Virus record (IMG/VR): IMGVR_UViG_3300016665_000380
Span: 1 to 46,856 of that record
Length of the DNA: 46,856 nucleotides
Origin: a virus
Strand: one strand, 5' to 3'
The position numbers and the translations under genes are program-made. The notes under the pieces are model-generated. The model was not told the origin of the DNA. It did not search any database and was given only the letters and a program-made list of their open reading frames with translations. This document shows, piece after piece, positions 2,421 through 46,856 of the stretch; within the stretch, counting starts at the first letter, position 1, and every line of letters starts with the position of its first letter.

Positions 2421-2608
2421 TTGACATTTGGAAGCGTTCTATCGCTCCATCCGGCTCATCGACCTTAAACGAGAACGTGGATTGGTCGTCCACAGCAACC
2501 CGTCTAAGCGGAGGTGACGACCGCAAATGGAGGTGGGTTAATCGCCATCGTGTGATGGAGGGGTGGCCTACTAAACGTCGGTAAATGTCGGTTTAACATT
2601 TTCATCTC

Positions 2609-3856
2609 ATGGCTTGTCCTAATGTCTTTAACGCCTTCGCTGTGGCTACCGAGTCGCTGGCGCAGGATGTCTACAAACGCGCCTCGTACCGCTCGATGTG
2701 GCTCAACATGATTGAGCGTGGCGAGTATCCTCAGGGTACGGGTCTGACTCAGACCTCGTTCACTACGACCTCTATCGAGCCGACTGCGGCTGAGGAGTGG
2801 TCTGCCATCACGCTTGCCTCTGGCAACCCTGGTTCGAATGGTGGCGCGTGCGATACCACCTACAACGATGTTCCGGTCGGCTACAATGCCGTTACTTGGA
2901 GTCCTGAGAAGTTCGCCCTCAAGGGGCCTCTGCTGTGTAAGGACGATCTGACCTTCGATCATCGTGTCGAGGCGTTCTTGCGTGTGTATCTGGAGAAGCT
3001 CTCGATCCGTGCGCAGCGGAGCTGGGAGACTCGCTATCAGAACATCTTCGCGAAGTACGCCATCAAGGCGATTGCTGATTCGAGCTTCACCCAGACCGAG
3101 GCGATTCCGTCGGGCATCAATGAGTTGCCCTGGATTCAGACTGGCTCTGTGGGTCAGGCGTTGAATCAGGCCACCTCGGAGCTGACCCAGGAAATGCTCG
3201 ATGTGGCTGCTGCCACGCTGATCCGTAATGGCGCGACGAACCCTGACAGCTCTGGCTTCATCAGCTATTCGAGCGATGGTCCGGTGTTCCCGCTCTACAT
3301 CGGTCTGGAGGCTTCTCAGCGTATCGCTCAGAACAACCCTGCGTTCCGCGATGATATCCGCTATGCTGACATGGGCAGCGGCAGCGGTGCTGAGTTGCTC
3401 AAGCGCATTGGTGCGAATCGGGTCATCAAGAACTTCCGGCATGTGCCGAATCTGTTCCCGCCCCGCTACACCTATGCTGGCGGCAAGTACACGCTGGTTC
3501 AGCCGTTCACCAGCAGCTCCGGCACGAAGGGTACTGTGTTCAGCGTCAACCCGAACTGGGTTACCGCGCAGTACGAAGCTGCGTTCATCGTCACCCCGTA
3601 TGTGTTCAAGTCGCACATCGTGCGGCCTATCAACCGTGTGGGCGACTTGAGCTGGATGCCGACCAACTACATGGGCGAGTGGCAGTGGGTGACTGGTGCC
3701 TACAAGCTCGATGTGGATTGCGTCGATCCTCTGGAGAAGAAGGGTCAGCACTACGCCGAGTTCGTGCATGCGCCTGAGCCGATCTTCACGAACCAGGGCA
3801 TGACGATCATCTTCCGTCGCTGCACTGGCGCTCTGACCCAGATCATTTGTTCCTGA
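2609..3856 (+). CDS. Major capsid protein (by elimination and expression signals)
   Basis: A 415-aa ORF whose codon bias is strong enough to leave a 472-aa antisense ORF open. Two tandem intrinsic terminators follow it. No other ORF in the genome is a plausible coat protein, while portal, scaffold and terminase are all present. The fold was not verified. Confidence 0.7.
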   Translation: MACPNVFNAFAVATESLAQDVYKRASYRSMWLNMIERGEYPQGTGLTQTSFTTTSIEPTAAEEWSAITLASGNPGSNGGACDTTYNDVPVGYNAVTWSPEKFALKGPLLCKDDLTFDHRVEAFLRVYLEKLSIRAQRSWETRYQNIFAKYAIKAIADSSFTQTEAIPSGINELPWIQTGSVGQALNQATSELTQEMLDVAAATLIRNGATNPDSSGFISYSSDGPVFPLYIGLEASQRIAQNNPAFRDDIRYADMGSGSGAELLKRIGANRVIKNFRHVPNLFPPRYTYAGGKYTLVQPFTSSSGTKGTVFSVNPNWVTAQYEAAFIVTPYVFKSHIVRPINRVGDLSWMPTNYMGEWQWVTGAYKLDVDCVDPLEKKGQHYAEFVHAPEPIFTNQGMTIIFRRCTGALTQIICS

Positions 3857-3881
3857 TAGGAACAAACCACTAACGAAAAAT

Positions 3882-3918
3882 CCGCAGGCCCCAGAAAGGC
3901 TTGCGGGTTTTTTCTTTT
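3882..3918 (+). terminator. Intrinsic terminator 1 after the capsid gene
   Basis: ccgcaggcc-ccagaaa-ggcttgcgg (9-bp stem with one G.U) followed by gttttttctttt. Confidence 0.8.
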
Positions 3919-3980
3919 CCACTAGATTCGCCTCGGTTGATTGACTCTAGGTTGTTTGTCTAAAAGCTCCATCACGGAGC

Positions 3981-7922: not shown

Positions 7923-8183
7923 ATGGACGAAATCATCCAACCTGATCCGGTTGTCACGGAAAGCGTGATGCCGACTGAACCGCAACCGGAAATCGTCACG
8001 TTTGACCCGCCCATTCAGGTCAATCCCAATGTCATAGCTGGTGACATGGTGGTTAAAACCGCCGAAATTGTTCAGCAGGCTGATGCATCCCAGGTCGTCG
8101 CCGTGATTTACGGCGATGGCCGGGTCATCGGGGTTCCGTTTGTTGACTCCAACGAGAACTCCATCAGGGTTGCCCTCAGCTAA
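7923..8183 (+). CDS. Hypothetical protein (86 aa)
   Basis: ORF track. It starts 2 nt after the fibre stop and is co-oriented. No motif recognised. Confidence 0.6.
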   Translation: MDEIIQPDPVVTESVMPTEPQPEIVTFDPPIQVNPNVIAGDMVVKTAEIVQQADASQVVAVIYGDGRVIGVPFVDSNENSIRVALS

Positions 8184-8191
8184 TTCGTCCA

Positions 8192-8380
8192 ATGACTGAC
8201 TCACACTTCATAAGGGACATCTCTGTGGGTGTTGGTGGGCCAGCCATTGGAATACTAGGAAGCGCGGTGTTCTCTGATCCGAACTTAAAGACGGCATCGC
8301 TTGCATTCGGTGCCATCGCCGCGCTTCTTGCTTGTGTTGCAAAGGCAATCGACATCTACAAGAAACTGAAAAACGATTAA
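8192..8380 (+). CDS. Holin-like two-TM protein
   Basis: 62 aa with two hydrophobic segments (VGVGGPAIGILGSAVF; ASLAFGAIAALLACVA) and a charged tail (KKLKND). Confidence 0.55.
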   Translation: MTDSHFIRDISVGVGGPAIGILGSAVFSDPNLKTASLAFGAIAALLACVAKAIDIYKKLKND

Positions 8381-8562
8381 TGAACCCTAACCTGTCCTCT
8401 CTCATCCGCCACATCCTCACCGCTGCTGGCGGTTTTCTCGTCGCCAAAGGTCTGGCTAGTGCCGATCAGATTGGTGAACTTGCCGGTGCTGTTGTCAGCA
8501 TCATTGGCGTCACCTGGGCAATCTTGAAGAACAAGAAGGATTCTGCCTCTAAGGCCGAATGA
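8380..8562 (+). CDS. Second holin-like two-TM protein
   Basis: Track ORF 8332..8562. The ATG at 8380 overlaps the upstream stop (TAATG). It has two hydrophobic segments (LIRHILTAAGGFLVAKGL; LAGAVVSIIGVTWAIL) and a charged tail (KNKKDSASKAE). Confidence 0.55.
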   Translation: MNPNLSSLIRHILTAAGGFLVAKGLASADQIGELAGAVVSIIGVTWAILKNKKDSASKAE

Positions 8563-8714
8563 ACTTCTTGGCCGACCTAGTGATGAAGCTGGTCATCTGG
8601 CTTCATTCTCTGACGACCAAAGATACGCCAAGCGAAGATGCCAAGAAACAACCAGATCTTAAGCGCAGCCTTCTTGATCGTGTTCGCGAGCATGAGCGTG
8701 AGCTGCGCAAGTAG
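8559..8714 (+). CDS. Possible 51-aa N-terminally anchored protein (i-spanin-like arrangement)
   Basis: Hand-translated: the ATG at 8559 overlaps the upstream TGA (ATGA), and AAGG lies 4 nt upstream. The sequence is MNFLADLVMKLVIWLHSL followed by a charged helix (KRSLLDRVREHERELRK). Its 3' end overlaps 8638..8862 in another frame. Confidence 0.35.
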   Translation: MNFLADLVMKLVIWLHSLTTKDTPSEDAKKQPDLKRSLLDRVREHERELRK

Positions 8715-8862
8715 GGTCATCTACGTTCCGCATGGAGAGCCAGTGCGCCTTGCCGAGAACGTGAAGGCCAAGGTTTGGGTTGTTGACGCCAGCGGCAAAA
8801 CTGTGCGTAGTAATAACCGCATCACCATCCATGAAGGCTGGTATGCGTTGCCAAAGGAATGA
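8638..8862 (+). CDS. Secreted or lipoprotein-like small protein (o-spanin-like position)
   Basis: ORF track. It has an N-terminal signal-like segment (LSAAFLIVFASMSVSCAS) with a Cys at the end of the hydrophobic run, though the lipobox is not canonical. It starts inside the preceding small ORF. Confidence 0.5.
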   Translation: MPRNNQILSAAFLIVFASMSVSCASRVIYVPHGEPVRLAENVKAKVWVVDASGKTVRSNNRITIHEGWYALPKE

Positions 8863-9026
8863 GCTACAACGCACCCTACAAATGTTCTCCGCCTGTTTCC
8901 CGATCAGGTGGCGGAAGCGGACCTTACAAACAGTCGCCGCCTCCGAAGCCTCCGGTGAAACCTGTTCCTAAGCCGGTTCCGAGCGGAAGCGGACCTTACG
9001 GAAGCGGTCCGTATCGCGGCAAATGA
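8859..9026 (+). CDS. Possible 55-aa proline-rich peptide
   Basis: Hand-translated: the ATG at 8859 overlaps the upstream TGA. The sequence is MSYNAPYKCSPPVSRSGGGSGPYKQSPPPKPPVKPVPKPVPSGSGPYGSGPYRGK. It ends 13 nt before a strong terminator hairpin. It has no signal peptide. Confidence 0.3.
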   Translation: MSYNAPYKCSPPVSRSGGGSGPYKQSPPPKPPVKPVPKPVPSGSGPYGSGPYRGK

Positions 9027-9038
9027 TTTGAAACGAAA

Positions 9039-9070
9039 ATCCCCCGGTGGCTTTGAAACCATCGGGGGAT
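9039..9070. terminator. Bidirectional terminator between convergent operons
   Basis: atcccccggtgg-ctttgaaa-ccatcgggggat (12-bp stem with one G.U). T-rich runs flank it on both strands. It sits between the plus-strand block ending at 9026 and the minus-strand gene ending at 9091. Confidence 0.75.
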
Positions 9071-9090
9071 AATTGTTTCTAGGATGATCG

Positions 9091-10290
9091 TCAGCGTCCT
9101 AACGATTTCATCACGCTGGCAACGAAGTCTTCGCTCTTCGCAGCGTTCGTGTTCGCAGGTCGAGAACCTCCGCCGGTAGTCGCCTTCGAGGTAACCCCAG
9201 GTTCGCTGCCACGATACTTTGCCAGTTCGGCTTGGAGCCGCTTGTTCACCTCGACCTGAGCATAGAGAAGCTCCCGGTATTTCGGCGCAGCAGCAGCCCA
9301 AAGAGCGGCCTTGGCGAGGTCTTCCTCGCTGTTCTCACCGTTGAAGATTTGCTGGGCGAGACTCAGACGCTGGTTCAGCTCGTTGTTCCATTCCTCGTCA
9401 TTCTCTCGCGGCTCAAAAATCTCCAGCGCGCGAGCGTTCTCGCTGACCTTCTGCCAAGTCTTGGTGGCCTGCTCAAGAGCAGCCTTGGTGTTTGTTTCGC
9501 TGTCCTGCTGATAGCGCGCGAGGATGGCGTCGTAATCAGCTTTGGCCTCGGAGATTTCAGCCGCACGCTCGCCGTTGATTTCCTCGTACTTGACGATCAA
9601 CGCACCGAGCTTGGCCTTCTTGGCAGGCGAAAGACCTTCCACAATGTCGTCGATCTGCGAGTTGCGATAATCGCTCTCAGGCGACTTAAGTAGGCCAACA
9701 AGTCGCTCTCCCTCAGTGCCGACAAGGCTCTTCACCGAATCGAACACGCCGTTGATCTTGCCCTCGTACTTCTTGATGAACTCAGGGTGACGCTCAACAT
9801 CGAGAAGGCGAACACGCTCGGAAAGAGAATCACGCTCTTCTTGCAACGCCTTGAGCTGCGCTTCGTAATCAGGATTCGCAGCTTTGCCAGCCTTCAGCTC
9901 TTCCAATTGCTTGGCCAACTGCGCTTTCTCTTCCTTGATCTTGCGAAAAGCATCGGCTGCTTTCGTGGACTTGATCGTCTCGGGAATATCGGAATCAGCA
10001 TCCGTAGAATTCGGAACGTCGGAGGCAGCTTCCGCTTGCTTCTTCGTGCCGAACATCCGCTCGATGTCCTTCTCGGCCTTCGTCAGCTTCGAGTCATTGG
10101 TGGCCTTAGCCTCAGGCTTGGCCTTCTGCTGCTTCTTCGGCTCCTCAGTAACCTGAGCGGCAGAATTTGCAGAGTCCTCGGCAGAAGCGGCGTCTTCAAG
10201 ACCACTGGCCTTAAAAGCGTCGATGAACGAGTTCCCAAAGTCGGGAGGAGTGGCGGTGTTAACGAGGGGAGAATTCAACGGTTCGTCCAT
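9091..10290 (-). CDS. Scaffolding-like protein
   Basis: 399 aa, acidic, Ala/Glu/Lys-rich with long predicted coiled coils (KEEKAQLAKQLEELKAGK...LKALQEERDSLSERVRLL). It is the last gene of the terminase-portal operon. Confidence 0.6.
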   Translation of the reverse strand: MDEPLNSPLVNTATPPDFGNSFIDAFKASGLEDAASAEDSANSAAQVTEEPKKQQKAKPEAKATNDSKLTKAEKDIERMFGTKKQAEAASDVPNSTDADSDIPETIKSTKAADAFRKIKEEKAQLAKQLEELKAGKAANPDYEAQLKALQEERDSLSERVRLLDVERHPEFIKKYEGKINGVFDSVKSLVGTEGERLVGLLKSPESDYRNSQIDDIVEGLSPAKKAKLGALIVKYEEINGERAAEISEAKADYDAILARYQQDSETNTKAALEQATKTWQKVSENARALEIFEPRENDEEWNNELNQRLSLAQQIFNGENSEEDLAKAALWAAAAPKYRELLYAQVEVNKRLQAELAKYRGSEPGVTSKATTGGGSRPANTNAAKSEDFVASVMKSLGR

Positions 10291-10303
10291 GGTTTATTTT
10301 TGG

Positions 10304-10579
10304 TTAGTATTGCTTTTCAAAAGTTGCTTCAGGTTCTTTCGATGTTTCAGTAACTGACAATTTTCGAAGGTTTTCAAGACAATGAGCGTAACCGGCGGTT
10401 ACACCGGCAGCGAAAATGATGTCAGATTCTTTGCTTCCATGAGACGGCATCGGAACCGGCATTGATTCGGAAACGATTCGGATGGCCATTCTAAGGATCG
10501 GGTTTTGAAAGATCTTCGCTAGTTCCGCGCTTTCACCGCTTGTCATCCAGCCCGACAGATTCACCTCCGGCAGATTCAT
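10304..10579 (-). CDS. Hypothetical protein (start uncertain)
   Basis: Track ORF 10304..10627 overlaps the upstream gene. Internal ATGs at 10579 (MNLPEV) or 10546 (MTSGES) reduce the overlap. No motif recognised. Confidence 0.5.
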   Translation of the reverse strand: MNLPEVNLSGWMTSGESAELAKIFQNPILRMAIRIVSESMPVPMPSHGSKESDIIFAAGVTAGYAHCLENLRKLSVTETSKEPEATFEKQY

Positions 10580-11912
10580 CAGGTCCTGCTTCGGCGTTTT
10601 CGTTGAGCCTCTTAGCCAGTTCATCATACTTTGATTTCTTGTTACGTTTCAGTTTGTGTCTCTGGGGAATCGGATCGAGAACGTCATCCAGCTTGGGAGG
10701 GTTCTCCTTGTTGACGACATCGCGCTTCGGTCGAATCACCTTCGTCACCTCAAGCATGTCGGCCAGCGGCAGCTTGATGTACCCGCAATCAACGTCGTTG
10801 ATACCGTACGACACAACGAACTGATTCTTTGCGCTGTCGAAAAACGCTCCGCACGGGAAGACGACGGCAGGAAGTCCGGGCCACCAGTCCTGCTGATTCG
10901 TGCCGCTCAAAATCGGCAGCGTCGTCATGCGGACGATGCGGAACGGAGCCTTCGCTTCGAAGGCGTACGCGCCCATGTAGTAACGCCGCTTCTGATTGAT
11001 CCACGGCAATGAGCTGTGAAAAAAGGTCCAGTAAAGACCATCGACAAGAATCGGGTTTGAGCCGCCTCGAACCTCGCCGAATTTCCAGAGCGGATTGAAC
11101 TCCTCGGTGACGTACTCAGCTTCCTTCTCAAGACGCCCATTGAGGCGCACAACCACATGGGGGTTGGCTGAGTACACCATGTGTGGCGCGTTGTCGTGAA
11201 CGAAGTACAGCCAGTTCTTTTCGTGGCCGTCGTTCACCATCGCCTGCGCCAGATTGTTTCCGTAAATCGTATCGAATCGACCAATGTTGAGGAACTGCTT
11301 GTCCAGCAGGAACATGCCCTGGTGGGCATACGACTTGAACGGAATGAACGTGCAGCAGCTCAGCCCATACTTGTCGCCAAACTTCACCACGCGCGGATCT
11401 TCGAACTGTTCATTCGGATAGTGCGCGGTGAGATTCAACAACGCCTTTTTTGTGGCTCGCAAATCTTTGCTCAGCTCGAAGACAACGATGTCGTTCTTCT
11501 CGACGTAAACGTCCTCATCCTTCTCGCGCTTGTTACGGCAGCGACGAGCGAAGAGCAGAATCCTGCCATCCGGTTCCTGCATGATTGCAGGATTGAAGTA
11601 GTACGTTCCGGTTTCCTCGGGCAGCACGATCTTGCCAACTTCCCAGTCAACTTGATCGGCCAACTTCGGCACATCGTTCTTTGCGTAGCTCATTAGGAAT
11701 TCCGCTGCGAATTTGATTTCGTCGTACAGAGCAAGCCAGTGGTCGCGCTCTTCGCGCACCTCAGTCAGATGCTCCTCATGTTCTTTGGTTCGAATCTCAA
11801 GTGTCTTCTGAAGATCCTCGATCTGCATCAGCAGGTCTGCTTGACCATCCCCGCCATTTGCAAACCGCTTGAGAGCTTTGAGTGACAGTTCACGGATGAT
11901 GTCTTTCATCAA
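10533..11912 (-). CDS. Coiled-coil + five-bladed-propeller protein of GH130/DUF377 type (glycoside phosphorylase/transferase-like)
   Basis: Strings typical of the family appear in order: YFNPAI, GRILLFARR, FEDPRVV, HEKNWLYF, RGGSNPILV, YYMGAYAF, VVFPCGAFF, VSYGINDV. Its ATG overlaps the upstream stop (ATGA). Confidence 0.6.
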   Translation of the reverse strand: MMKDIIRELSLKALKRFANGGDGQADLLMQIEDLQKTLEIRTKEHEEHLTEVREERDHWLALYDEIKFAAEFLMSYAKNDVPKLADQVDWEVGKIVLPEETGTYYFNPAIMQEPDGRILLFARRCRNKREKDEDVYVEKNDIVVFELSKDLRATKKALLNLTAHYPNEQFEDPRVVKFGDKYGLSCCTFIPFKSYAHQGMFLLDKQFLNIGRFDTIYGNNLAQAMVNDGHEKNWLYFVHDNAPHMVYSANPHVVVRLNGRLEKEAEYVTEEFNPLWKFGEVRGGSNPILVDGLYWTFFHSSLPWINQKRRYYMGAYAFEAKAPFRIVRMTTLPILSGTNQQDWWPGLPAVVFPCGAFFDSAKNQFVVSYGINDVDCGYIKLPLADMLEVTKVIRPKRDVVNKENPPKLDDVLDPIPQRHKLKRNKKSKYDELAKRLNENAEAGPDESAGGESVGLDDKR

Positions 11913-12538
11913 GGATACAAGTTTGTGTTCTCTTGCGTCGCCAGCCTCGGAAGAACTCCGTAGAAGTTCATTCTAGGCATCGAGTCAACCAGCATTTGGA
12001 TGTCGATTGGACTCCAAACCTTCTGGTTGGTTTCGAGGAGTTTGCATGCTCCCTCGTAGTTTACAAGGTAAGCATGCGTACACATGCCTCGAACGAGCTT
12101 GTAGAGGTTTGAACCGATGTACTTGTGGTCTTCCAGAGGATCAGCGCAGCAACTTCCGATGTAGACGACATGCCAGTCTTTCGGAAGAAAGACCAAGTTT
12201 TCCGCCAACTTTGCCTTCCAATCTAAACAAGTGAACTCAACGTCATCCTCAACGATCAGGAACGTGCGATGATCGGTTGTTTTCGCCTCAACCATCCACT
12301 TGATGGCCGACCAGACAGCGAAGTGGCTCAATCCTGCGACGATGGTTTTGACCTTCGCCTTCTCCTTCTCGCGCGTGTGGTAGTAGTCGGTCGAGATGCC
12401 GCAGTTGTGTGCCTTAAATCCGTACATCGGAACCGCATCGATTCCGAAGGTCTTCATGTAGCGGATGCAGCGTTTCTCCTTCTCCCCACCAGGGTTGGAA
12501 ACGATGAAGCAGGGAGTCTTTTCGAGGTCCAATTTCAT
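11909..12538 (-). CDS. GT25-like glycosyltransferase (copy 2)
   Basis: AGLSHFAVW, FLIVEDDVEF and DWHVVYIGSCCA match the GT25 (LPS/collagen galactosyltransferase family) layout. It is paralogous to 13130..13732, sharing GSCCA, CTH.Y.V and PID.QM. Confidence 0.7.
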   Translation of the reverse strand: MKLDLEKTPCFIVSNPGGEKEKRCIRYMKTFGIDAVPMYGFKAHNCGISTDYYHTREKEKAKVKTIVAGLSHFAVWSAIKWMVEAKTTDHRTFLIVEDDVEFTCLDWKAKLAENLVFLPKDWHVVYIGSCCADPLEDHKYIGSNLYKLVRGMCTHAYLVNYEGACKLLETNQKVWSPIDIQMLVDSMPRMNFYGVLPRLATQENTNLYP

Positions 12539-13125
12539 CGGTTGGGAAGGATGTAGATGATTCCGCGACGCGCGCCAGTCGCCCTGCTCGGGTGGTTGTA
12601 GTAGAAACTGTAGCCGTACTTCTGGGTCAGCGTTTTTGCACGGTAAATCGCGTCCAGCTTCTCCTTGATGTAGCCGAAACAGATATCGTGTCCGCCATAG
12701 CTGTCGTATCCAAGCTGGCCCGTAGGCTCCTTGAAATCATGGATGGCAATGACCGGATGCAGATCGTATCGGTTGATGGCCTCAAGCTCTTCAAGCAGCG
12801 GCAGATAGTCGTTCCAATGTGCGTCGAGAAAGAAGATCGTGTCGTGTCCAACCCCGTTGTGCGGGATGAACCAGTTCATGCAGGCATCGCTGCTGCCCTC
12901 GAACATCTCAACATAGACGTTCTCACGCTTGAACCGCTCCTTCGCCTTCTCAACACGATCATGGTCAAGCTCGCACGAAACAACCTTCAGGAAGTTCTTG
13001 GCCAACCAGACGGTTGTATCTCCCTCGTGTGTTCCGGTTTCGACAGCGGTCGTCAGATCGAACCGTTCCTTGAGGTAAAGAAACTCTTGTTCGATGAACG
13101 TGTCTCCATTGAAAGGTGAACCCAT
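12535..13125 (-). CDS. Class I SAM-dependent methyltransferase fold, CmcI/sugar O-methyltransferase-like
   Basis: The track ORF starts at a TTG (13164). The first ATG, at 13125, lies 4 nt after the upstream stop. VETGTHEGDTT serves as motif I, with FFLDAHW and AIHDF downstream. Confidence 0.65.
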   Translation of the reverse strand: MGSPFNGDTFIEQEFLYLKERFDLTTAVETGTHEGDTTVWLAKNFLKVVSCELDHDRVEKAKERFKRENVYVEMFEGSSDACMNWFIPHNGVGHDTIFFLDAHWNDYLPLLEELEAINRYDLHPVIAIHDFKEPTGQLGYDSYGGHDICFGYIKEKLDAIYRAKTLTQKYGYSFYYNHPSRATGARRGIIYILPNR

Positions 13126-13129
13126 AATT

Positions 13130-13732
13130 TTAGTCGGCCAGAGGACAGTCTTCTTGATCGGCAACGCGCGGAAAAATCGTGAAGCACTTCAAGCGTTCGC
13201 GGCTCTTGAAGTACATCTGCAAGTCGATAGGCGCGAACACCTCTTCATTCGTCTCAATCAGAATCTTCAACGCTTTCTTGCGAACGATGTAGCAGTGCGT
13301 ACACAGCGGCATCCCCTCGAACAAGTTGAAGTCAATCTGCTGACGCATTTTCCCGACTGCGCAGCATGATCCTGGATAGAGGATGTCCCAATCCTCAGGC
13401 AGCTTTGTCAGCGCACGTTCAATCGTTTCACTCCAATTCGGACGGAACACGATATCGTCCTCCAGAATCATCACCATGTCGGGTGTTGTCGGATCGAAAT
13501 CCAACGCATTCCAGAGCATCCAATGGGACATGCTGCACCCGACATGCTTCGCCCCAATCAGATAACCAGAACCCGGGCTATCAACCTCGTAAGGAATGCT
13601 AGCCTTCAGGCCAGAGCGTTGCCCGTTGAGTCCGTAGAAGATGCGGTAATCCGTGATTCCGGCGGAATCAAGATTTGCTTGTAAACGCGAAATGCGCGGA
13701 GAGCCGCGCATCGTGATAACAACCGTTTGCAC
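13130..13732 (-). CDS. GT25-like glycosyltransferase (copy 1)
   Basis: VVITMRGSPRISRL, KHVGCSMSHWMLW, MVMILEDDIVF and DWDILYPGSCCA match the GT25 consensus layout. The GTG start lies 3 nt after the upstream stop. Confidence 0.75.
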   Translation of the reverse strand: MQTVVITMRGSPRISRLQANLDSAGITDYRIFYGLNGQRSGLKASIPYEVDSPGSGYLIGAKHVGCSMSHWMLWNALDFDPTTPDMVMILEDDIVFRPNWSETIERALTKLPEDWDILYPGSCCAVGKMRQQIDFNLFEGMPLCTHCYIVRKKALKILIETNEEVFAPIDLQMYFKSRERLKCFTIFPRVADQEDCPLAD

Positions 13733-13735
13733 GGG

Positions 13736-14362
13736 TTACTTGAGCTTGCGGTAGATGGCGAAAACGCTCTCGTTCAGGTCAAACCGCGAAATGAATTCGC
13801 AACGCTTCAAGACGAACTTGATAGCAGTCTGAGTCGATTCCCAGTTCACATCGTCCATCACGATGTATCCGCCAACCTTCAGCTTCGGAAGCCAATTGAC
13901 GACATCGCTCGTAGACGGCCACTCGGCATGATTCGCGTCGATATGAACCATGTCCATGTCAGGCAGGAATCGCGAAGCGTCCCAAGAAGACATGCGGCAG
14001 AACTGGATCTGCCTCACAACCTGCGCACGGACACAATGCCCAACGAACGATTCGTAATGCTTGTCGAGGTCAAGAGTGGACCACCATTCTTGATTCGCGG
14101 AAGTTTCATCGTCGATGCAGTCTTCCTTTTTCCACGAATCAATGGCGTAGACAGTGCCGCTGCCATTCAGCTTGCAAGCCTGGGCAAGAGCGAGCGTTGA
14201 TTTTCCTTCGAACACGCCAACTTCAGCGATTCGCTGAGGTTTGGTTTCAAGAACAAGTTTGGCGATTTCAATGCCCTTCTTCGGGTCGCACCAGCCACCC
14301 ATCTTCGGGAAGTTTTCAGCGACAAACTGTTCGATGTTTTGAACGTGTTCTTGGTTGATCAT
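13736..14362 (-). CDS. Class I SAM-dependent (O-)methyltransferase
   Basis: EVGVFEGKSTLALA (motif I), TVYAIDSW, MVHIDANH and GGYIVMDD. It starts 2 nt after the portal stop. Confidence 0.75.
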   Translation of the reverse strand: MINQEHVQNIEQFVAENFPKMGGWCDPKKGIEIAKLVLETKPQRIAEVGVFEGKSTLALAQACKLNGSGTVYAIDSWKKEDCIDDETSANQEWWSTLDLDKHYESFVGHCVRAQVVRQIQFCRMSSWDASRFLPDMDMVHIDANHAEWPSTSDVVNWLPKLKVGGYIVMDDVNWESTQTAIKFVLKRCEFISRFDLNESVFAIYRKLK

Positions 14363-14364
14363 GC

Positions 14365-16614
14365 TTATCCTTGTCGTCCCAGATTCGCTTCAGCAGTTGC
14401 ATTCGCTCGCTGAATATCAGCGGTGGTCTTCGCATTCCGGCGAGCCAAGTCGGCCATCGCCTTCGTGTTCTGACGCTGGATATTGGCCATCGTTTCGGCG
14501 TTCTGGCGAGCGATTTTCGCCTGAACTTCAGCGTTGAGAACCGCCGTCTTAGGATCGACACCCTGCTGAATCGCCTGAGCCTGCTGCATCTGCATCTGCG
14601 CCTGCTGCTGCTCGGCCAGAAACTCGGAGAGCTGCTGCACGGTCTGCACAAGCATCTGAAGCTGCTGCGAGTAAGCCTCGACCTGAGGACGGCGCGTAGG
14701 ATCGGTGGACAAGCGTTGCAGATGATCTTGAACGTGCTGACCGATACCTTGCAGGAAGAGCATAATCTCCTGCGGGTTTCCGCCTTGCTGGATCGACGCA
14801 GCCGCTTCGTTCGCCGCCGCAAGATGCGTGTCGATGTGAACGATGTGGTTCTGCGTGTCGGTGACGAGAGCCATGTTCCCTTGGCGCAGCGACGAATGCT
14901 CAAGCACCGCAAGAGCAGCCTGATCCTGAACCTTCGAGGATTGAACCTGAGTCGGAAGATACCGATCCACCATTTGCTGGCCAACCTGGGCCGCAATGTA
15001 ATCGCGCAAGAGGCTGACCTTTCCGCCCTCAGGAAGAGAGCCTAGCAAACCAAGCAGAGAGCCGAGGAGCTGCTGCTTGGCGAACTGAGAACCTTGGCCA
15101 ACCGTGCGAGTCGCTTCCACGAAGTCGATGTCAAGCATGGCTTGAACTGGAACGCCCCGTTCGGCGCAACGACGCTGGAACTCAATCGCGTCCTTGTCCG
15201 ATTTCGTGATGGGATTCAGGTTCGGATTCGCAGCGCGCCGGAATCGCTCCTCGAAGAAAGAATCAAGCTGGGTGTAATACCGGCTCAACTGAGTCTTACC
15301 GATAGCAGACTGCTGCGATACAATTGCTTGGATTTCAGTGGCAGTGCGGGGATTGCCGCTCGGCTTGTTGAGCGATTGGCGATACTGAGAGAGATTGCCC
15401 TGAAGAACATTCTCAAGGTCCGCATTGACCGCCATAGGAGCGTCCAGAACGCCAGCAATGTTCTGCTGGATAACCTCGTAGTCAGGCGGGAGTATCGCAT
15501 AGGGGCCTTGCTGAACGACGCTCGTCTTGGTCAGAGCGTTGGGATTAAGGGGACGGAAAAGAATCTGCGTGCGAGCAAACGCGCTGTCCACCATCGAGCA
15601 GCGGAGGCGGTTCTTCAGCTCCATCGCCTGAAGCATCTTGATGCCAAGACCCTTCACGCCGTGATGCTCGCCGTCGCCACGGTCGTAATACATCGGGTGG
15701 ATGACCTGCTCCCACTTTTTGAAACGACGGAGCTTGCGGTACATGAAGTCGCCGCTGTCACGCTCATCGATGATGGCATGGCTGATCTGCCCATCGAACT
15801 CCTTGTAGAAGACATGGCACATCAGGACGACCTCTGACCGCGCGCTGAACGTGATGTCGTTCGAGCGAAGCTGACGCTGGAAGAATTCCCAATCGTACTG
15901 AACGCCGGAGCGATACGGCTCCGGCATCGCAGCGCGGATTCGCTCGCGAACGTAATCGACATTCCAACCGGCAGCTTTTGCCGCCTCTTCGTCTTGGATC
16001 TTCTCGAACAGATCATCGACGCCCATGCGGGTACGGACACAAGCAACCTTCCAGTCGCTCACGTTGGACTTGGTGCCGTCGGGGACGAGAAGGTCCGTCG
16101 CCATGATGGCCTTGCACCGCCAGTTGGTGTTGTCCTCGAAGATCAGAGGGCCATGACCGATGAGGACCATCTCACGCTGCGAAAGCTGCATGAGATAGTC
16201 GAAGTCCTTGTCCATCTTCTGAAGACGGTCGAATTCCTCGGTGATGATCTTGGACCATTCATCACGCTTATCCATGTCGTTGCCATACGCCGTGCGAATC
16301 GTCGCGTAGGTGGGAACCTCAGCGAACACATCGTAGAAGGCAGACATGGCCAACGTCAGGAACGCTTCCGACTCGCGGAAATTGACGTTGGTGCGAAACG
16401 CCTGATTGTTTCGGCGAAGATCAGCAGGATTGTACGGAGGATTGCCGTCAACCAGACCACGCAGCTTCGCCCGGGTGTTGTTGCGAAGATCATCTGCGCT
16501 GATTAACTTCTGGAAAATCTCGCGCGCTGATGCGGCGTCAGCGATGCGCGTCTCTGGCGCGGTGCCATTCTCGTTGAGAGTTTCGAGCGGCAGTTGAGCT
16601 ATTGATCCGTACAT
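14365..16614 (-). CDS. Portal protein
   Basis: 749 aa. It lies one small gene downstream of terL in the same operon. The C-terminus is Gln/Ala-rich and helical, ending in four 11-residue repeats, which is barrel-like. Assigned by size, position and composition, not by search. Confidence 0.7.
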   Translation of the reverse strand: MYGSIAQLPLETLNENGTAPETRIADAASAREIFQKLISADDLRNNTRAKLRGLVDGNPPYNPADLRRNNQAFRTNVNFRESEAFLTLAMSAFYDVFAEVPTYATIRTAYGNDMDKRDEWSKIITEEFDRLQKMDKDFDYLMQLSQREMVLIGHGPLIFEDNTNWRCKAIMATDLLVPDGTKSNVSDWKVACVRTRMGVDDLFEKIQDEEAAKAAGWNVDYVRERIRAAMPEPYRSGVQYDWEFFQRQLRSNDITFSARSEVVLMCHVFYKEFDGQISHAIIDERDSGDFMYRKLRRFKKWEQVIHPMYYDRGDGEHHGVKGLGIKMLQAMELKNRLRCSMVDSAFARTQILFRPLNPNALTKTSVVQQGPYAILPPDYEVIQQNIAGVLDAPMAVNADLENVLQGNLSQYRQSLNKPSGNPRTATEIQAIVSQQSAIGKTQLSRYYTQLDSFFEERFRRAANPNLNPITKSDKDAIEFQRRCAERGVPVQAMLDIDFVEATRTVGQGSQFAKQQLLGSLLGLLGSLPEGGKVSLLRDYIAAQVGQQMVDRYLPTQVQSSKVQDQAALAVLEHSSLRQGNMALVTDTQNHIVHIDTHLAAANEAAASIQQGGNPQEIMLFLQGIGQHVQDHLQRLSTDPTRRPQVEAYSQQLQMLVQTVQQLSEFLAEQQQAQMQMQQAQAIQQGVDPKTAVLNAEVQAKIARQNAETMANIQRQNTKAMADLARRNAKTTADIQRANATAEANLGRQG

Positions 16615-17222
16615 GGTCGTTTTTTCCAGCAGTGAGCCGGCAGGTTTTCGTTCTCTGTAGCGTCAGTAAATTTATGGAGTGTTTCAATGGGAAACCACAC
16701 CATGCTTCTGATAAAGCAACCGCAAAATTCGCAGCTTTGAACCTGCTCATCGTACGGCGTGCTTCCGTGTTGGGAAAATGTTTTAACAGCTTCTTTTAGC
16801 ACGCGAGAGTTACAGCCAGTGCATCCGAGTGGCTTGCGGTTGAACCTGCATCCAGAGCAAATGCTGGCGCGTCGGTTTGCCTCTTCTTGACTGACTTTTC
16901 CCCCTCCAACTGTAAGGCCGTGTAACAGGCTCATGCTGAATCTGATGACATCGCCAATTTGAAGCGACTTGCGTCCAGCAGGCTTCGAAAGCTCAACCTC
17001 GTTGTACATGCAATCAGCACCGTTTTTGCATGCATATTCAGTAATCAACGTGTCCAGATTTGTTGGAATCGGAATCGCGTTCGCCGTGTAATGATTGCGA
17101 ACAAACTCGTGAAGCTGCGGCCATGAGCCTGCCGTGATTTCGATTCCAGTCTCCGGCACTCGATAGTGCCATCCACCCGGAATCACCATGTGTTCATTGA
17201 GAATCTTGTAGCCACTGCTCAT
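16599..17222 (-). CDS. Cys-rich (putative zinc-binding) protein coupled between terminase and portal
   Basis: Track ORF 16599..17273. The ATG at 17222 (MSSGYKIL) forms an ATGA overlap with the terL stop, and the 3' end overlaps the portal start by 16 nt. Cys clusters: CSGCRFNRKPLGCTGC and CEFCGC. Confidence 0.65.
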   Translation of the reverse strand: MSSGYKILNEHMVIPGGWHYRVPETGIEITAGSWPQLHEFVRNHYTANAIPIPTNLDTLITEYACKNGADCMYNEVELSKPAGRKSLQIGDVIRFSMSLLHGLTVGGGKVSQEEANRRASICSGCRFNRKPLGCTGCNSRVLKEAVKTFSQHGSTPYDEQVQSCEFCGCFIRSMVWFPIETLHKFTDATENENLPAHCWKKRPCTDQ

Positions 17223-18898
17223 ACGTTGTCCTCGTAGTAGATTGAATCGGCATCTCGAACGAGCTTTTCCCAAATCTTATCGGTTTTTGTTGCTCTCGGC
17301 TCTAAGACGGTTGTCTTGCGAACCAGATCGAGAAGAACAACCGCAGCGTCGGCCAAGTCAGGCGATTTTCCGGTTCGTTGCTTCATCACGGTCTTCGACT
17401 CGACCGATATCTTTCGTTTCGTGTCATCGAACAGGCGCGCGCAAAATTCTTGCAGAGTCTCGATGTCGAGTCCTCCGACACGCTCCTCGACAACCCATTT
17501 CCGCATCGAGAACCACAGCTCCGTCACCTTACGGTCGTAAGCCTCGTTGCATGGCCGACTATCTTCATCGCTGACCGGGATTGTTGAAGGTGCGCCGCCG
17601 AACTCGACGCGATGAACAATACCCCATTCTCGGGTCAGAATATCCGCAAGACCGCCACCTTCGCCGCTTGAATCGAGAGCAAACTTATCCGGCGCAACGC
17701 CACGTTTCGCGCACTCCTCTTTGACGCGATTGGCAATTTGATAGTGAACCGGCTCTGTCAACTGCGCGTTTGGCGAGATGTGGATGACGTCTCCAAATGC
17801 GATGCTCAGTTTGTCGTTGGCCGTTCCAACCTTGGCAAAGCGCAGAATACACCTGTCTCCACCAAATCCCGGATCAAGCGCGGCCACATTCTCAATATTC
17901 GTAGTAAACACCAACTTTCTTGTAGGTGTGTGCGTCTCGATCAGTGATTCCGACAGCACCGTCTTAACCATGCCATCGGGACTCCAGAAGCCGCGCGTGT
18001 ACTTCCAGAACGTAGGACTCTGCTCGCCCTCATGGCGCATCGCAGACAGCACCTGATCATGGGTTATCAGATACGGGTACTTGGTTCTGCCCTCGGTGAT
18101 GTTGGGTGACTTCATGCCGTCGAAACGGCGGCAAATGCCACGCTCAGTCAGCCAATGCTGGTCTTCAATCGTCACGCTGCGCCAACCCTTTGCTGGGGTG
18201 CAGAATCGACCGTGCGGATCGTACTTCGAAGCGGGGTTTCCAATGACGAGCATCTTAAACTCGCGACAACCCTTAGAAAGGTTGGTACACGCCTCGAATG
18301 CCGCTTCAGGCGTGTCCGTCGCTTCGTCGATGATGACCATGACACGTTCAGCGTGGATACCCTGAATGTTGGCCACCGCCTTCGAGGTGTTACCCTCAGC
18401 GACAGCGATGGCAGAAATTGAATGCCGGTCGTCGCCTTTGACAGCTTGGAGAGCCATCTTCGAATCGACCATGTTGCCGGGGAATCCGCGCGTTTTCCGA
18501 ACAAGATCCTGAAGATTGGCCCACATACGCTTTCGAATCATCTTCGCAGTCGTCGAAGTCAGAACGACTGTGGACTTCATTGGATTTGCCAACCACCAGA
18601 CCGTTGCGAAAAGCGTTGCGCCAAAGGTCTTTCCGCTCGCGCCGCATCCAGCCCAACCAACGTAATCATGTTCGCACAGGTCCTCGATCTGAGCTTCAAG
18701 CCAAGGATTCCAACTCATCTTCGGCCACAAGATTTTTGTAGCGTTTCGAAAATGCTCAGAAGTACCTAATCCGCCCTCATTCGGTTGGAGTCGATTTCGA
18801 AACGCATAAAGCTCCAGTTCAAGGTCTGGAATTTTGATGGGAGAACGAATCCCGTACTTGTGGTCGATTAGTGGATGCTCGGACACTTTTTCTGCCAT
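17219..18898 (-). CDS. terL: Terminase large subunit
   Basis: Walker A (GWAGCGASGKTF) and Walker B (VMVIIDEATD), followed by a nuclease-sized C-terminal half. 559 aa. It is the first gene of the head operon. Confidence 0.9.
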   Translation of the reverse strand: MAEKVSEHPLIDHKYGIRSPIKIPDLELELYAFRNRLQPNEGGLGTSEHFRNATKILWPKMSWNPWLEAQIEDLCEHDYVGWAGCGASGKTFGATLFATVWWLANPMKSTVVLTSTTAKMIRKRMWANLQDLVRKTRGFPGNMVDSKMALQAVKGDDRHSISAIAVAEGNTSKAVANIQGIHAERVMVIIDEATDTPEAAFEACTNLSKGCREFKMLVIGNPASKYDPHGRFCTPAKGWRSVTIEDQHWLTERGICRRFDGMKSPNITEGRTKYPYLITHDQVLSAMRHEGEQSPTFWKYTRGFWSPDGMVKTVLSESLIETHTPTRKLVFTTNIENVAALDPGFGGDRCILRFAKVGTANDKLSIAFGDVIHISPNAQLTEPVHYQIANRVKEECAKRGVAPDKFALDSSGEGGGLADILTREWGIVHRVEFGGAPSTIPVSDEDSRPCNEAYDRKVTELWFSMRKWVVEERVGGLDIETLQEFCARLFDDTKRKISVESKTVMKQRTGKSPDLADAAVVLLDLVRKTTVLEPRATKTDKIWEKLVRDADSIYYEDNV

Positions 18899-18952
18899 AG
18901 TTTAACCTTGCAATAGTTCTCGCTGGACTTGAGCTTCTGCGAAAGGAAAAAT

Positions 18953-20167
18953 ATGCCGTCGCAACTTGCTTCTTCATCCGGCTGCTGCCAGCCTTGCGAC
19001 TCTGAGCCGACAGTCGTCAACATCCCCGGACCTCAAGGTGCGCCTGGAACCAATGGCACCAATGGAACGAACGGAATCAATTCGTTCACTTACACGACAG
19101 CCTCGTTTTTGGTTCCTGCGCTTGGCTCTAGCGTTTTGGTTTTTGTCGATAATACCGACTTTTTGCCGGAGTCTGTCGCAGGCCAATTCTTCGTTTCCAT
19201 TCAGGGCGTTGGATACATGCAGGTTCTGTCTGTCGATGGCTTGCAGTTGACGCTGCAAAATCCTGCTGCCGGTGTTCTTGGAATCGCCAACGCTGTTCCT
19301 ACTACTCTGATTCCACAGGGTTCTTTAATCACATTGGCTGGAGCGATTGGCCCCGCCGGGGCTGCTGGGGCTTCTGGAGGTGCGCCGGTTGGAGCGTCTT
19401 ACATCTGCCGTACCAATGATGGAACGCTGACGAATGAGACTGCGCTAGACACTCTCGCTGGTGGTTACATGAAGACCGCTGGCTCTGGCGGTGCTGGCGT
19501 TATTTCAACGGTGGCTACAATTCCCGTTGGTGACATCAGCGGAACGTTGCCAGTCACCAAGGGTGGAACCGGACTGACGACTGCTCCGGCGAACAAGATT
19601 CCGGTTGGAGATGGCACTGGATACCTTCAAAAGGAAATCGTTGGAACGCTTCCGGTTGTGGTGACGAACACCGCCGGAAACATCAACATTTCGGCACCAT
19701 CCATCGTTCCGTTTTCGTACGTTACGTTTACCCGTCGTGTTGCTGGTGCTGGAGCCGGGAATGTCCCGTTTATTGCATCTGCAACAACCACAAATCCATT
19801 CAACGCAACAACCTATCCGGTTCCTGTTTCGTACTCTGGAATAGACACTGCGTCAGGTTTTTCCGCCGCAACTGGAAAGTTTACTGTTCCTTACACTGGA
19901 TACTATCGCATTGACGCTTACTTCAACTTTTTGGGAAGCGCGCCGAGCGACACGTTGACATACATTTATGTGAGGAAAAACGGATCAAACATTCTTTCGA
20001 CTTATTCGTTCAAGGTTACAAACGCAGGCTATCATCCTATTTCTGTGGTTTACGTTGATCAGGCAACTTCAACGTCTGACTTTTACGAGATTTATGTCAG
20101 GGCTGAATCAAACGGTCTTTACGTTGAAAACGGCTCTTCGTTCTCGGTTCAACGCATTCAGGCTTAA
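18953..20167 (+). CDS. Collagen-triplet fibre protein with C1q/TNF-like C-terminal head (putative)
   Basis: The track ORF starts at a TTG (18929). The ATG at 18953 has AAGGA upstream. There are six G-X-Y triplets (GPQGAPGTNGTNGTNGIN, nt 19028-19081). The C-terminal string GKFTVPYTGYYRIDAYFNF...VRKNGSNIL...FYEIYVRAESNG resembles gC1q jelly-roll strings. Confidence 0.65.
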   Translation: MPSQLASSSGCCQPCDSEPTVVNIPGPQGAPGTNGTNGTNGINSFTYTTASFLVPALGSSVLVFVDNTDFLPESVAGQFFVSIQGVGYMQVLSVDGLQLTLQNPAAGVLGIANAVPTTLIPQGSLITLAGAIGPAGAAGASGGAPVGASYICRTNDGTLTNETALDTLAGGYMKTAGSGGAGVISTVATIPVGDISGTLPVTKGGTGLTTAPANKIPVGDGTGYLQKEIVGTLPVVVTNTAGNINISAPSIVPFSYVTFTRRVAGAGAGNVPFIASATTTNPFNATTYPVPVSYSGIDTASGFSAATGKFTVPYTGYYRIDAYFNFLGSAPSDTLTYIYVRKNGSNILSTYSFKVTNAGYHPISVVYVDQATSTSDFYEIYVRAESNGLYVENGSSFSVQRIQA

Positions 20168-46538: not shown

Positions 46539-46808
46539 TTAGAAAACACGGATTGAACGGGAAAGGGGACGGGAAACACCGTAGTCCGTCACTTGATTGA
46601 CGTATCGGGGAGTCGATTCGCGGGGACGGAATTCTAAGCAAGGCCCGGAAACGGAGGCGGAAACGTAATAGTCGCGCAGGTTGAAAGCGGCGATTCGTTC
46701 GCCATCGGGGAAAGGGAGAATTGCCAAGCATTCGTGAGGCTGGCCGACGTTGCGGGGACGGGGAATCGTGCCGATTCGAAAGCAGAATTCAGCGAGTGTT
46801 TCTTTCAT
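46539..46808 (-). CDS. Hypothetical early protein (89 aa) straddling the terminal-repeat boundary
   Basis: ORF track. The ATG is preceded by the CAAACAAAATCC leader. Codons from 46808 down to 46612 lie inside the 245-bp repeat. Confidence 0.6.
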   Translation of the reverse strand: MKETLAEFCFRIGTIPRPRNVGQPHECLAILPFPDGERIAAFNLRDYYVSASVSGPCLEFRPRESTPRYVNQVTDYGVSRPLSRSIRVF

Positions 46809-46856
46809 GGATTTTGTTTGATTGATTTTGACTGACGAATTCTACCTACCGTCGCC
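46612..46856. repeat. Terminal direct repeat, right copy (identical to 1..245)
   Basis: See the left copy. The window ends at the base equivalent to 245, which is inside the loop of the hairpin at 231..254. Confidence 0.95.

Follow-up and report, generated by a model that had tools for sequence, protein, structure and literature searches.

To our knowledge, experimentally documented glycosylation of phage virions is limited to a few groups of actinobacteriophages, in which it changes how the particle is recognized. Cluster O mycobacteriophages, which include Corndog, carry genes for an O-methyltransferase, two glycosyltransferases and an N-acetylglucosamine (GlcNAc)-transferase-like protein between the portal and capsid maturation protease genes (PMC4351075), and a second source, citing Freeman et al. 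2023, reports that this cassette modifies the capsid and the tail tube (PMC11600133). We describe here a comparable locus of five genes in IMG/VR record IMGVR_UViG_3300016665_000380, from what looks like a lytic tailed phage, uncultured and of freshwater (lake) origin. The genes encode two methyltransferases (MT1 and MT2), two family 25 glycosyltransferases (GT25a and GT25b) and a protein with a predicted GH130 fold; they lie tightly packed on the minus strand at positions 10533-14362, between the presumed portal and presumed scaffold genes. The window analyzed is the whole record of 46,856 nucleotides (nt). Because bases 1-245 are identical to bases 46612-46856, we regard it as a complete phage genome of about 46.6 kb, this identity reflecting either a terminal direct repeat or an overlap from circular assembly.

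Our domain scan assigns Corndog gp35 to TylF/Methyltransf_24 and gp38 to Glyco_transf_25, and gp38 matches GT25 alleles of the clade studied here in BLASTP comparisons (E-values from 3e-9 to 4e-3), the remainder of the Corndog cassette being without detectable similarity. Both the gp35-gp38 cassette and ours directly follow the portal gene (a positional label in our phage) and precede the next head-assembly gene; both combine an O-methyltransferase of the Methyltransf_24/TylF type with several glycosyltransferases of presumed GT-A fold, including GT25; both encode enzymes that look soluble, and sugar-activation genes are found in neither. An initial annotation of the window had matched the arrangement to no described system. 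The Corndog cassette provides such a match, and only the GH130-fold member is without precedent there. The two systems also differ in several respects: the GH130-fold enzyme and a second, COMT-like methyltransferase occur only in our phage; Corndog is a prolate siphovirus of an actinobacterial host, whereas the host of our phage is possibly diderm; and wholesale swapping of modules, of which we know no report among close Cluster O relatives, is dominant in our clade.

This swapping is seen among close relatives of the phage. Over 150 related stretches are found in IMG/VR, carried by contigs 41-47 kb long, and their portal and GH130-like proteins are 86-94% identical to those of the window (portal, 85-94%). 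We compared about 130 loci fetched from portal to scaffold; some contigs were fetched twice, so that distinct contigs are fewer. Across these loci, terminase, portal and GH130-like proteins stay about 85-93% identical (82-91% for the GH130-like protein), whereas MT1, GT25a, MT2 and GT25b have counterparts of 28-36% identity (28-35% for the MT1 alleles) or none, and the spacing from portal to scaffold ranges from 2848 to 6192 nt. Homology to relatives at the nucleotide level (blastn) ends at 14367, the portal stop codon, and restarts at the start codon of the GH130 gene (11909-11910); between the two, further break points at 13131/13136 and 13727 are gene boundaries as well. The four genes in between form a hypervariable island, whose members are replaced at exact gene boundaries by other glycosyltransferase and methyltransferase modules: other GT25 alleles, a GT32-like protein with a DXD motif, a GT2/GT7C-like protein of about 300 amino acids (aa), Methyltransf_11, Methyltransf_21 and a second Methyltransf_24 lineage. 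The base composition of the cassette block is the same as that of the remainder of the genome. The initial annotation had treated the five genes as one cassette unit; they are instead a swappable four-gene island and a GH130-like gene conserved like the backbone.

No cultured relative was found with a megablast search of positions 9000-19000 against GenBank phages or with tblastn searches of the portal, GH130-like and MT1 proteins. The number of related contigs suggests that the lineage is very abundant among uncultured lake phages, with many further members in other metagenomes.

The conserved gene of the locus encodes a protein that reaches the gathering score of PF04041 (39.2 bits, cutoff 26). 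Its AlphaFold2 (AF2) model (predicted local distance difference test score, pLDDT, of 86.8) consists of a helical hairpin at the N terminus (residues 1-78), a beta-propeller with five blades (approximately 90-392) and a disordered basic C-terminal tail (393-459). The best 28 Foldseek matches of this model are all GH130 structures. The closest, at 12-18% identity as for the structural matches in general, are the beta-1,2-mannoside phosphorylases 7fir, 5b0p and 9fj8 (E-value 5e-13, template modeling (TM) score 0.73-0.77); next come the mannoside synthase Uhgb_MS and the GT108 enzymes of Leishmania. The GH130/DUF377 propeller proposed in the initial annotation is borne out by these searches; the start proposed at 11912, on the other hand, most likely has to be moved to the ATG at 11909, because homologues begin with MKDI.

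The five-bladed propeller is common to the phage protein, to the GH130 enzymes Lin0857, Teth514_1788/1789 and Uhgb_MS and to the GT108 mannosyltransferase-phosphorylases of Leishmania, which are its top Foldseek and profile matches, and both the EDPR motif with its catalytic Asp and the His/Tyr positions (FHSS...Y) align. In 38 homologues, E171-D172-P173-R174 is invariant or near-invariant, and K232-N233, R282, H299 and Y311 are also invariant. The EDPR motif aligns with EDPR/EDAR of 7fip and 5b0p, and its Asp is presumably the proton donor. K232-N233, H299 and Y311 fall on conserved GH130 positions; the arginine position of the 'HRP' motif appears not to be conserved (VYSANP), and the invariant R282 lies elsewhere. 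The phage protein differs from these enzymes by its N-terminal hairpin and basic tail, and its family has been seen only on phage-like contigs, beside head genes. Its scores against the NCBIfam equivalogs NF050092 and NF052550 (41.7 and 39.7 bits) are far under the cutoffs (550 and 450), so that we consider it a remote relative of beta-1,2-mannobiose phosphorylases and do not file it as one. Variants of the propeller include a tandem duplication (P0050) and fusions to DUF5672 in phage-like contigs (P0100, P0110). The extra domains (about 290 aa) of the 600-aa variants have no Pfam match and no similarity to the cassette glycosyltransferases, that of P0050 being the duplicated GH130 propeller.

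Of the two glycosyltransferases, GT25a reaches the gathering score of PF01755 (Glyco_transf_25; E-value 5e-11, 43.3 bits, cutoff 24) and matches phrog_2835, labeled 'glucosyltransferase' (4.4e-12). GT25b scores 21.6 bits against PF01755, below the cutoff, though it is clearly a paralogue of GT25a (29% identity over 201 aa in BLASTP, E-value 5e-27), as the initial annotation had recognized. An EDD motif, which may be the DXD-like site for metal and nucleotide sugar, is present in both (MILEDD and LIVEDD) and aligns with LEDD of mimivirus R655. This protein is the top match of GT25a in the Protein Data Bank (PDB entry 9crz, 1.4e-6) and a putative collagen glycosyltransferase (PMC9546862). A collagen-hydroxylysine target, suggested by the GT25 family and R655, was rejected: the only G-X-Y runs, in a 412-aa protein described below (p412), are short and lysine-free, and no lysyl hydroxylase was found. 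In cultured phages the sole match of GT25a, at 23% identity, is a glycosyltransferase of Burkholderia phage AP3.

MT1 is a clear member of PF13578 (Methyltransf_24; E-value 6.2e-20, 72.5 bits, cutoff 26.3), with the motif EVGVFEGKS and the O-methyltransferases 3cbg and 2hnk as top PDB sequence matches. Its match to RMNT_CmcI is weak and under the cutoff (21.5 bits); weak, too, is its match to TylF, which an MT1 allele of the relatives matches at 27.3 bits. MT2, with the motif ETGTHEGDT, gives sub-threshold Pfam matches throughout when searched as a single sequence, and its comparison with the Methyltransf_24 profile by hhalign, based on very shallow alignments, is not significant (probability 1.2%). 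A family profile of 37 sequences retrieves PIMT (1.5e-8), COMT (about 5e-6) and YrrM/TrmR from the PDB; the AF2 model (pLDDT 95.3) has alternating beta and alpha elements, and its Foldseek matches are NovO, Rv0187, COMT and TomG (E-values around 1e-7, TM around 0.6). Some MT2 homologues are labeled 'predicted O-methyltransferase YrrM' by JGI. The deeper profile and the structure model argue that MT2 is a COMT/YrrM-like class I methyltransferase. The methyltransferase fold proposed for this protein in the initial annotation and its start at the ATG at 13125 are retained; the CmcI type is replaced by the COMT/YrrM-like assignment. Both enzymes display the Rossmann-like seven-strand fold and glycine-rich motif I of class I S-adenosylmethionine (SAM) methyltransferases, as judged from profile and motif for MT1 and from model, profile and motif for MT2, and both would O-methylate sugars of the glycan. 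Profile searches of the five proteins, with structure searches for MT2 and the GH130-like protein, support the GT25, methyltransferase and GH130 folds expected. No hydrophobic segment was found in any of them in a crude scan (maximal 19-residue Kyte-Doolittle mean of 1.26), and all five look soluble.

The five open reading frames (ORFs) are present with the packing initially annotated, and every motif then quoted is found in their translations. Successive junctions are TAA-GC-ATG between portal and MT1 (2-nt gap), TAA-CCC-GTG between MT1 and GT25a (3-nt gap), TAA-AATT-ATG between GT25a and MT2 (4-nt gap), an ATGA overlap between MT2 and GT25b and a TGATG overlap between GT25b and the GH130-like gene. 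As gaps are of 2-4 nt and a promoter and terminator scan inside the operon gave counts at chance level, it is plausible that cassette and head genes are co-transcribed in this phage. Both flanking genes occupy positions consistent with the portal and scaffold labels of the initial annotation, but family support is lacking and the two labels are positional. For the presumed portal, no usable match was obtained in Pfam, PHROGs or NCBIfam, by phmmer against the PDB, with a 29-sequence profile against the PDB or in a PHROGs scan of 29 homologues; the label is given because the gene follows TerL and encodes 749 aa. The presumed scaffold has no Pfam or PHROGs family match and is so named because its homologue in contig L162 directly precedes a capsid-protein homologue.

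Linkage of the GH130-like gene to head genes extends far beyond the close relatives. The family counts 561 detectable members, and phage-like contigs are the only place where they were seen. When 185,579 species genomes were scanned with a pattern, five GH130-like loci turned up, all in lake metagenome-assembled genome (MAG) bins with contradictory taxonomy, and these are probably phage contigs. In nine out of nine long contexts (L158, L160, L162, L163, L164, L171, L172, L173 and L176) the gene adjoins a Methyltransf_24 gene, and most of them also carry a GT25 or GT2-like gene. A portal homologue, then a scaffold homologue or scaffold-sized gene, is present in all of these but L164, and the association of GH130-like, Methyltransf_24 and head genes persists down to 23-41% portal identity. 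The GT2/GT7C-like family mentioned above, with 30-60% mutual identity, is a recurrent third partner of Methyltransf_24 and GH130-like genes in distant phages (Table 1); the type of cassette present in the window has no such gene. In L162, a gene for a Cpn10 (GroES-like) co-chaperonin (8048-8500) lies between the portal and the glycosylation genes.

We surveyed related phages for presence or absence of the cassette, as the initial annotation had suggested. The close loci keep the GH130-like gene and swap the other four. Two contigs with 48% portal identity, L174 and L175 (the latter from TARA), retain the terminase, a Cys-rich protein of 224 aa (p224), the portal, a small protein and the scaffold (38-41% identical), but the cassette is missing from this position. 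It is thus an accessory insertion, dispensable at the level of the family. The small protein, p107 (107 aa), whose homologues sit between portal and scaffold in L174 and L175 (E-values 3e-7 to 8e-11) as well as in all cassette-bearing relatives, belongs to the backbone and not to the cassette, because it is present in the cassette-less contigs; its true start is probably near 10579. L174 also holds, near its capsid gene, a 380-aa gene (10199-11341) with a faint phage-integrase match and no counterpart in the window. An assignment of hosts from MAG labels was rejected, as the labels Actinomycetes, Pirellula, Chlamydia (trachomatis), Nitrosomonadales and Crocinitomicaceae are mutually inconsistent; the lineage contigs in MAG bins (L165-L169, P0210 and P0217) are probably binning contamination and carry no host information.

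Two further groups of systems bear comparison with the locus. In chloroviruses and mimiviruses, activated sugars of the host are assembled in the cytoplasm into methylated glycans carried by capsid or fibril proteins, and PBCV-1 A064R combines two glycosyltransferase domains and a methyltransferase domain. Like our phage, these viruses encode soluble glycosyltransferases and O-methyltransferase, and GH130-like propellers occur in giant viruses too (bioRxiv 10.64898/2026.08.04.742344). They are, however, viruses of eukaryotes that rely on other enzyme families for most steps, with homology at the fold or family level only and without synteny to portal or scaffold genes. The second group comprises bacterial O-antigen and capsule loci and the gtr/oac genes of seroconverting phages. 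There, as here, near-identical genomes trade blocks of genes for glycosyltransferases and modifying enzymes, with conserved flanking genes and sharp break points. In contrast to these, our locus lacks membrane components (Wzx/Wzy/Wzz, GtrA/B or others) as well as a lysogeny module, and its place is within the head operon of a phage instead of the attachment-site-proximal position of a moron.

We rate glycosylation of the virion as the most likely function, because of the positional and family precedent, the soluble enzymes, the head-gene linkage and the dispensability of the cassette. By analogy, the cassette would attach a short O-methylated glycan to a protein of the virion (probably that of the capsid), late in infection and in the cytoplasm, a reading to which we give about an even chance; the methylated virion glycan of the initial annotation thus survives as the leading hypothesis, as an argument by analogy. 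As apparently soluble proteins, the enzymes could meet assembling virion proteins in the cytoplasm, and the absence of the cassette in L174 and L175 is what would be expected of an optional decoration, as in mycobacteriophages. The acceptor just named is inferred, as are the sugars used and the direction in which the GH130-fold enzyme would work. Donors would be host nucleotide sugars or sugar-1-phosphates; in agreement with the initial annotation, no nucleotide-sugar synthesis domain was detected among about 50 ORFs scanned. GT-A enzymes would add the sugars (two GT25 here; GT32-like, GT2/GT7C-like or other GT25 alleles in relatives) and the Methyltransf_24-type and COMT-like enzymes would O-methylate them. 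The GH130-fold enzyme would perform the invariant step, most likely a beta-linked transfer of mannosyl type from mannose 1-phosphate (Man-1-P) or GDP-mannose (GDP-Man), since its closest characterized relatives can do so. Since near-identical phages trade glycosyltransferase and methyltransferase modules yet retain the GH130-like gene, one element of the glycan would be constant and another part would differ from strain to strain.

An extension of this model, possible but doubtful, is that the locus is the phage counterpart of an O-antigen locus, a 'virion glycotype' island. In natural populations of this one abundant freshwater lineage, a constant GH130-fold beta-glycosyl transferase or phosphorylase would be combined with modules that recombination swaps at gene boundaries and that set the rest of a capsid-surface glycan. 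Diversifying selection in the environment, exerted for instance by lectin-like defenses of the host, decoy binding or grazers, would then act on the sugars of the virion surface.

Several observations weigh against glycosylation of the virion. Direct evidence points to no particular acceptor. The capsid gene lies outside the cassette operon, about 5 kb from the scaffold gene and on the opposite strand, and its product has no Ser/Thr-rich C-terminal extension of the kind reportedly described for the Che8 capsid. When we compared cassette type with sequence clusters of ten backbone and structural genes by analysis of similarities (ANOSIM), the association was weak throughout and no tighter for capsid or other structural genes than for the backbone (R from 0.10 to 0.31; capsid, 0.13), so that this search for an acceptor yielded no candidate among the ten. 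Contig L176 has three of its cassette genes on the other strand, so that co-expression with head genes is not obligatory. In the GH130-like protein, one canonical phosphate-binding Arg is apparently not conserved (alignments were judged by eye), which makes the type of reaction uncertain. GT25 enzymes are best known for lipooligosaccharide (LOS) cores, and a target in the host envelope fits the families equally well. Finally, why a virion glycan should be under diversifying selection in lake water is left unexplained by this reading.

The enzymes could instead act on the host surface late in infection, extending or methylating the core of the lipopolysaccharide (LPS) or LOS, the O-antigen or some other glycan of the surface. 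Superinfection could thereby be blocked, or progeny kept off debris, and the variable glycosyltransferase and methyltransferase sets would then track the glycans of host strains. PF01755 is indeed an 'LPS biosynthesis' family, the PHROGs class of the homologues is 'moron, auxiliary metabolic gene and host takeover', and the one match in a cultured phage is the AP3 enzyme. A diderm host is hinted at by a gene (8638-8862) that resembles those for lipoproteins and spanins, and both the hypervariability, which resembles that of bacterial O-antigen loci, and the accessory nature of the cassette fit such a role. Several features nevertheless make remodeling of the envelope the less probable reading, though a serious rival. 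As had been initially annotated, no integrase or repressor domain was detected among the ORFs scanned, and the phage looks lytic. No GtrA/B, Wzy, O-acetyltransferase or other membrane-embedded component was found. A constant GH130-like enzyme is hard to explain if the acceptor varied from one host strain to another, and a strict linkage to portal and scaffold over deep divergence would be unusual for a host-takeover moron. In addition, the nearest experimentally studied cassette is reported to modify virions (PMC11600133).

Other rivals concern parts of the locus. The GH130-like protein may be loosely tied to its neighbors and break down a host beta-mannoside, from storage or envelope, or serve as a virion-associated module that binds or depolymerizes glycans. 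Characterized bacterial GH130 members are all catabolic phosphorylases or hydrolases, the catalytic EDPR motif is invariant, the predicted hairpin and basic tail could serve for docking, and the gene evolves independently of the adjoining island. We judge this improbable, since the gene adjoins Methyltransf_24 in every long context, mostly with a further glycosyltransferase, and the protein has no signal peptide and no location in the tail module. Enzymes specific for beta-1,2 linkages within GH130 are dual and use Man-1-P or GDP-Man to build beta-mannosides (PMC12814180). Giant-virus structural neighbors of the propeller are fused to biosynthetic domains, namely LicD/FKTN, a fucosyltransferase and a pyruvyltransferase (BFVD A0A1V0SDN7, A0A3G5AFP7 and A0A3G5AG18), and phage-like relatives to DUF5672; it is this use of mannosyl donors, together with the giant-virus fusions, that leads us to favor a synthetic over a degradative role. 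Hypermodification of phage DNA, in which bases would be glycosylated and/or methylated as a protection against restriction, has in its favor the label 'DNA methyltransferase' of phrog_2675, matched by MT1, and the ThyX and C5 cytosine methylase encoded elsewhere in the phage. We consider it very improbable: MT1 and MT2 match small-molecule and sugar O-methyltransferases and not DNA methyltransferases, we know of no DNA glycosyltransferase with a GT25 or GH130 fold, no base hydroxymethylase or DNA-kinase gene was found in the ORF scans, and the locus is in the head module rather than the replication module.

The remainder of the genome encodes a DnaB-like AAA_25 protein, an SF2 helicase, SSB, ThyX, a PDDEXK exonuclease, a RecT-like protein and a C5 DNA methylase. 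The protein encoded by the capsid gene is 35% identical to the L162 protein 3' of the scaffold and 37-43% identical to proteins of L171, L174 and L175; a longer antisense ORF over this gene (2504-3922, minus strand) is probably spurious. The gene for p224, which has no match in a family search and is kept in all relatives, including the cassette-less ones, overlaps the terminase gene by 55 nt when listed from its first TTG. Divergent from the terminase lies the gene for p412 (18929-20167, plus strand), which has a weak C1q-domain match and two short collagen-like G-X-Y runs (19028-19081 and 19340-19384). No other structural gene varies as much among relatives (amino-acid distance 0.28-0.33), and p412 is probably a fiber or receptor-binding protein. 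A cluster of small ORFs at 8192-8862 on the plus strand, coding for hydrophobic proteins and for a 74-aa protein (8638-8862) whose signal is lipoprotein-like (...SMSVSC), looks like a lysis cassette of the holin/spanin kind and would point to a diderm host. A GC-rich hairpin with a 12-bp stem (9039-9070) separates the lysis genes from the scaffold gene, toward which they converge; the sole notable match of the terminator scan, it is likely a bidirectional terminator.

Table 1. Features of the locus, its surroundings and related contigs (positions in the window unless a contig is named)
Feature	Position	Strand	Basis or remark
MT1, Methyltransf_24/TylF/CmcI-type SAM O-methyltransferase, 208 aa	13736-14362	-	PF13578; variable island
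GT25a, family 25 glycosyltransferase, presumed GT-A fold, EDD motif, 200 aa	13130-13732	-	PF01755; variable island
MT2, predicted class I SAM methyltransferase, COMT/YrrM-like, 196 aa	12535-13125	-	Profile and AF2 model; variable island
GT25b, GT25a paralogue, 209 aa	11909-12538	-	BLASTP; variable island
GH130-like protein, conserved anchor of the cassette, 458 aa	10533-11909	-	PF04041 and AF2 model
Hypervariable island, four genes, portal stop to GH130 start codon	11910-14364	-	blastn break points
Presumed portal, 749 aa, upstream flank	14365-16614	-	Position and size
p107, small backbone protein, downstream flank, outside the cassette	10304-10627	-	Homologues in cassette-less relatives
Presumed scaffolding protein, 399 aa, charged, helical, downstream flank	9091-10290	-	Position
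TerL (large terminase)	17219-18898	-	phrog_2, 8.9e-22
p224, Cys-rich 224-aa protein, several CxxC pairs, between terminase and portal	16599-17273	-	ORF listing
Major capsid protein homologue, 415 aa	2609-3856	+	Similarity to L162, L171, L174 and L175 proteins
GT2/GT7C-like gene, L162	8500-9417		
GT2/GT7C-like gene, L163	2420-3325		
GT2/GT7C-like gene, L171	3206-4111		
GT2/GT7C-like gene, L172	5916-6800		
GT2/GT7C-like gene, L173	9809-10708		
GT2/GT7C-like gene, L176	11574-12488		
GT2/GT7C-like gene, L008	8774-9754		

Judged from sequence comparisons, what appears new relative to Corndog is an anchor enzyme family of GH130 fold, seen only in phage-like contigs, and the swapping of glycan-building genes at the level of strains. 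The locus suggests that the strategy of virion glycosylation is shared by an abundant lineage of uncultured lake phages. If the virion is the target, particles of this lineage would come in variable 'glycotypes', with a bearing on adsorption, host defense, particle stability and phage engineering. If the host envelope is the target, this would be an unusual case of a lytic phage whose head operon harbors a variable locus of the O-antigen kind. For either target, the GH130-like family offers a defined and testable candidate for a new viral beta-glycosyl transferase.

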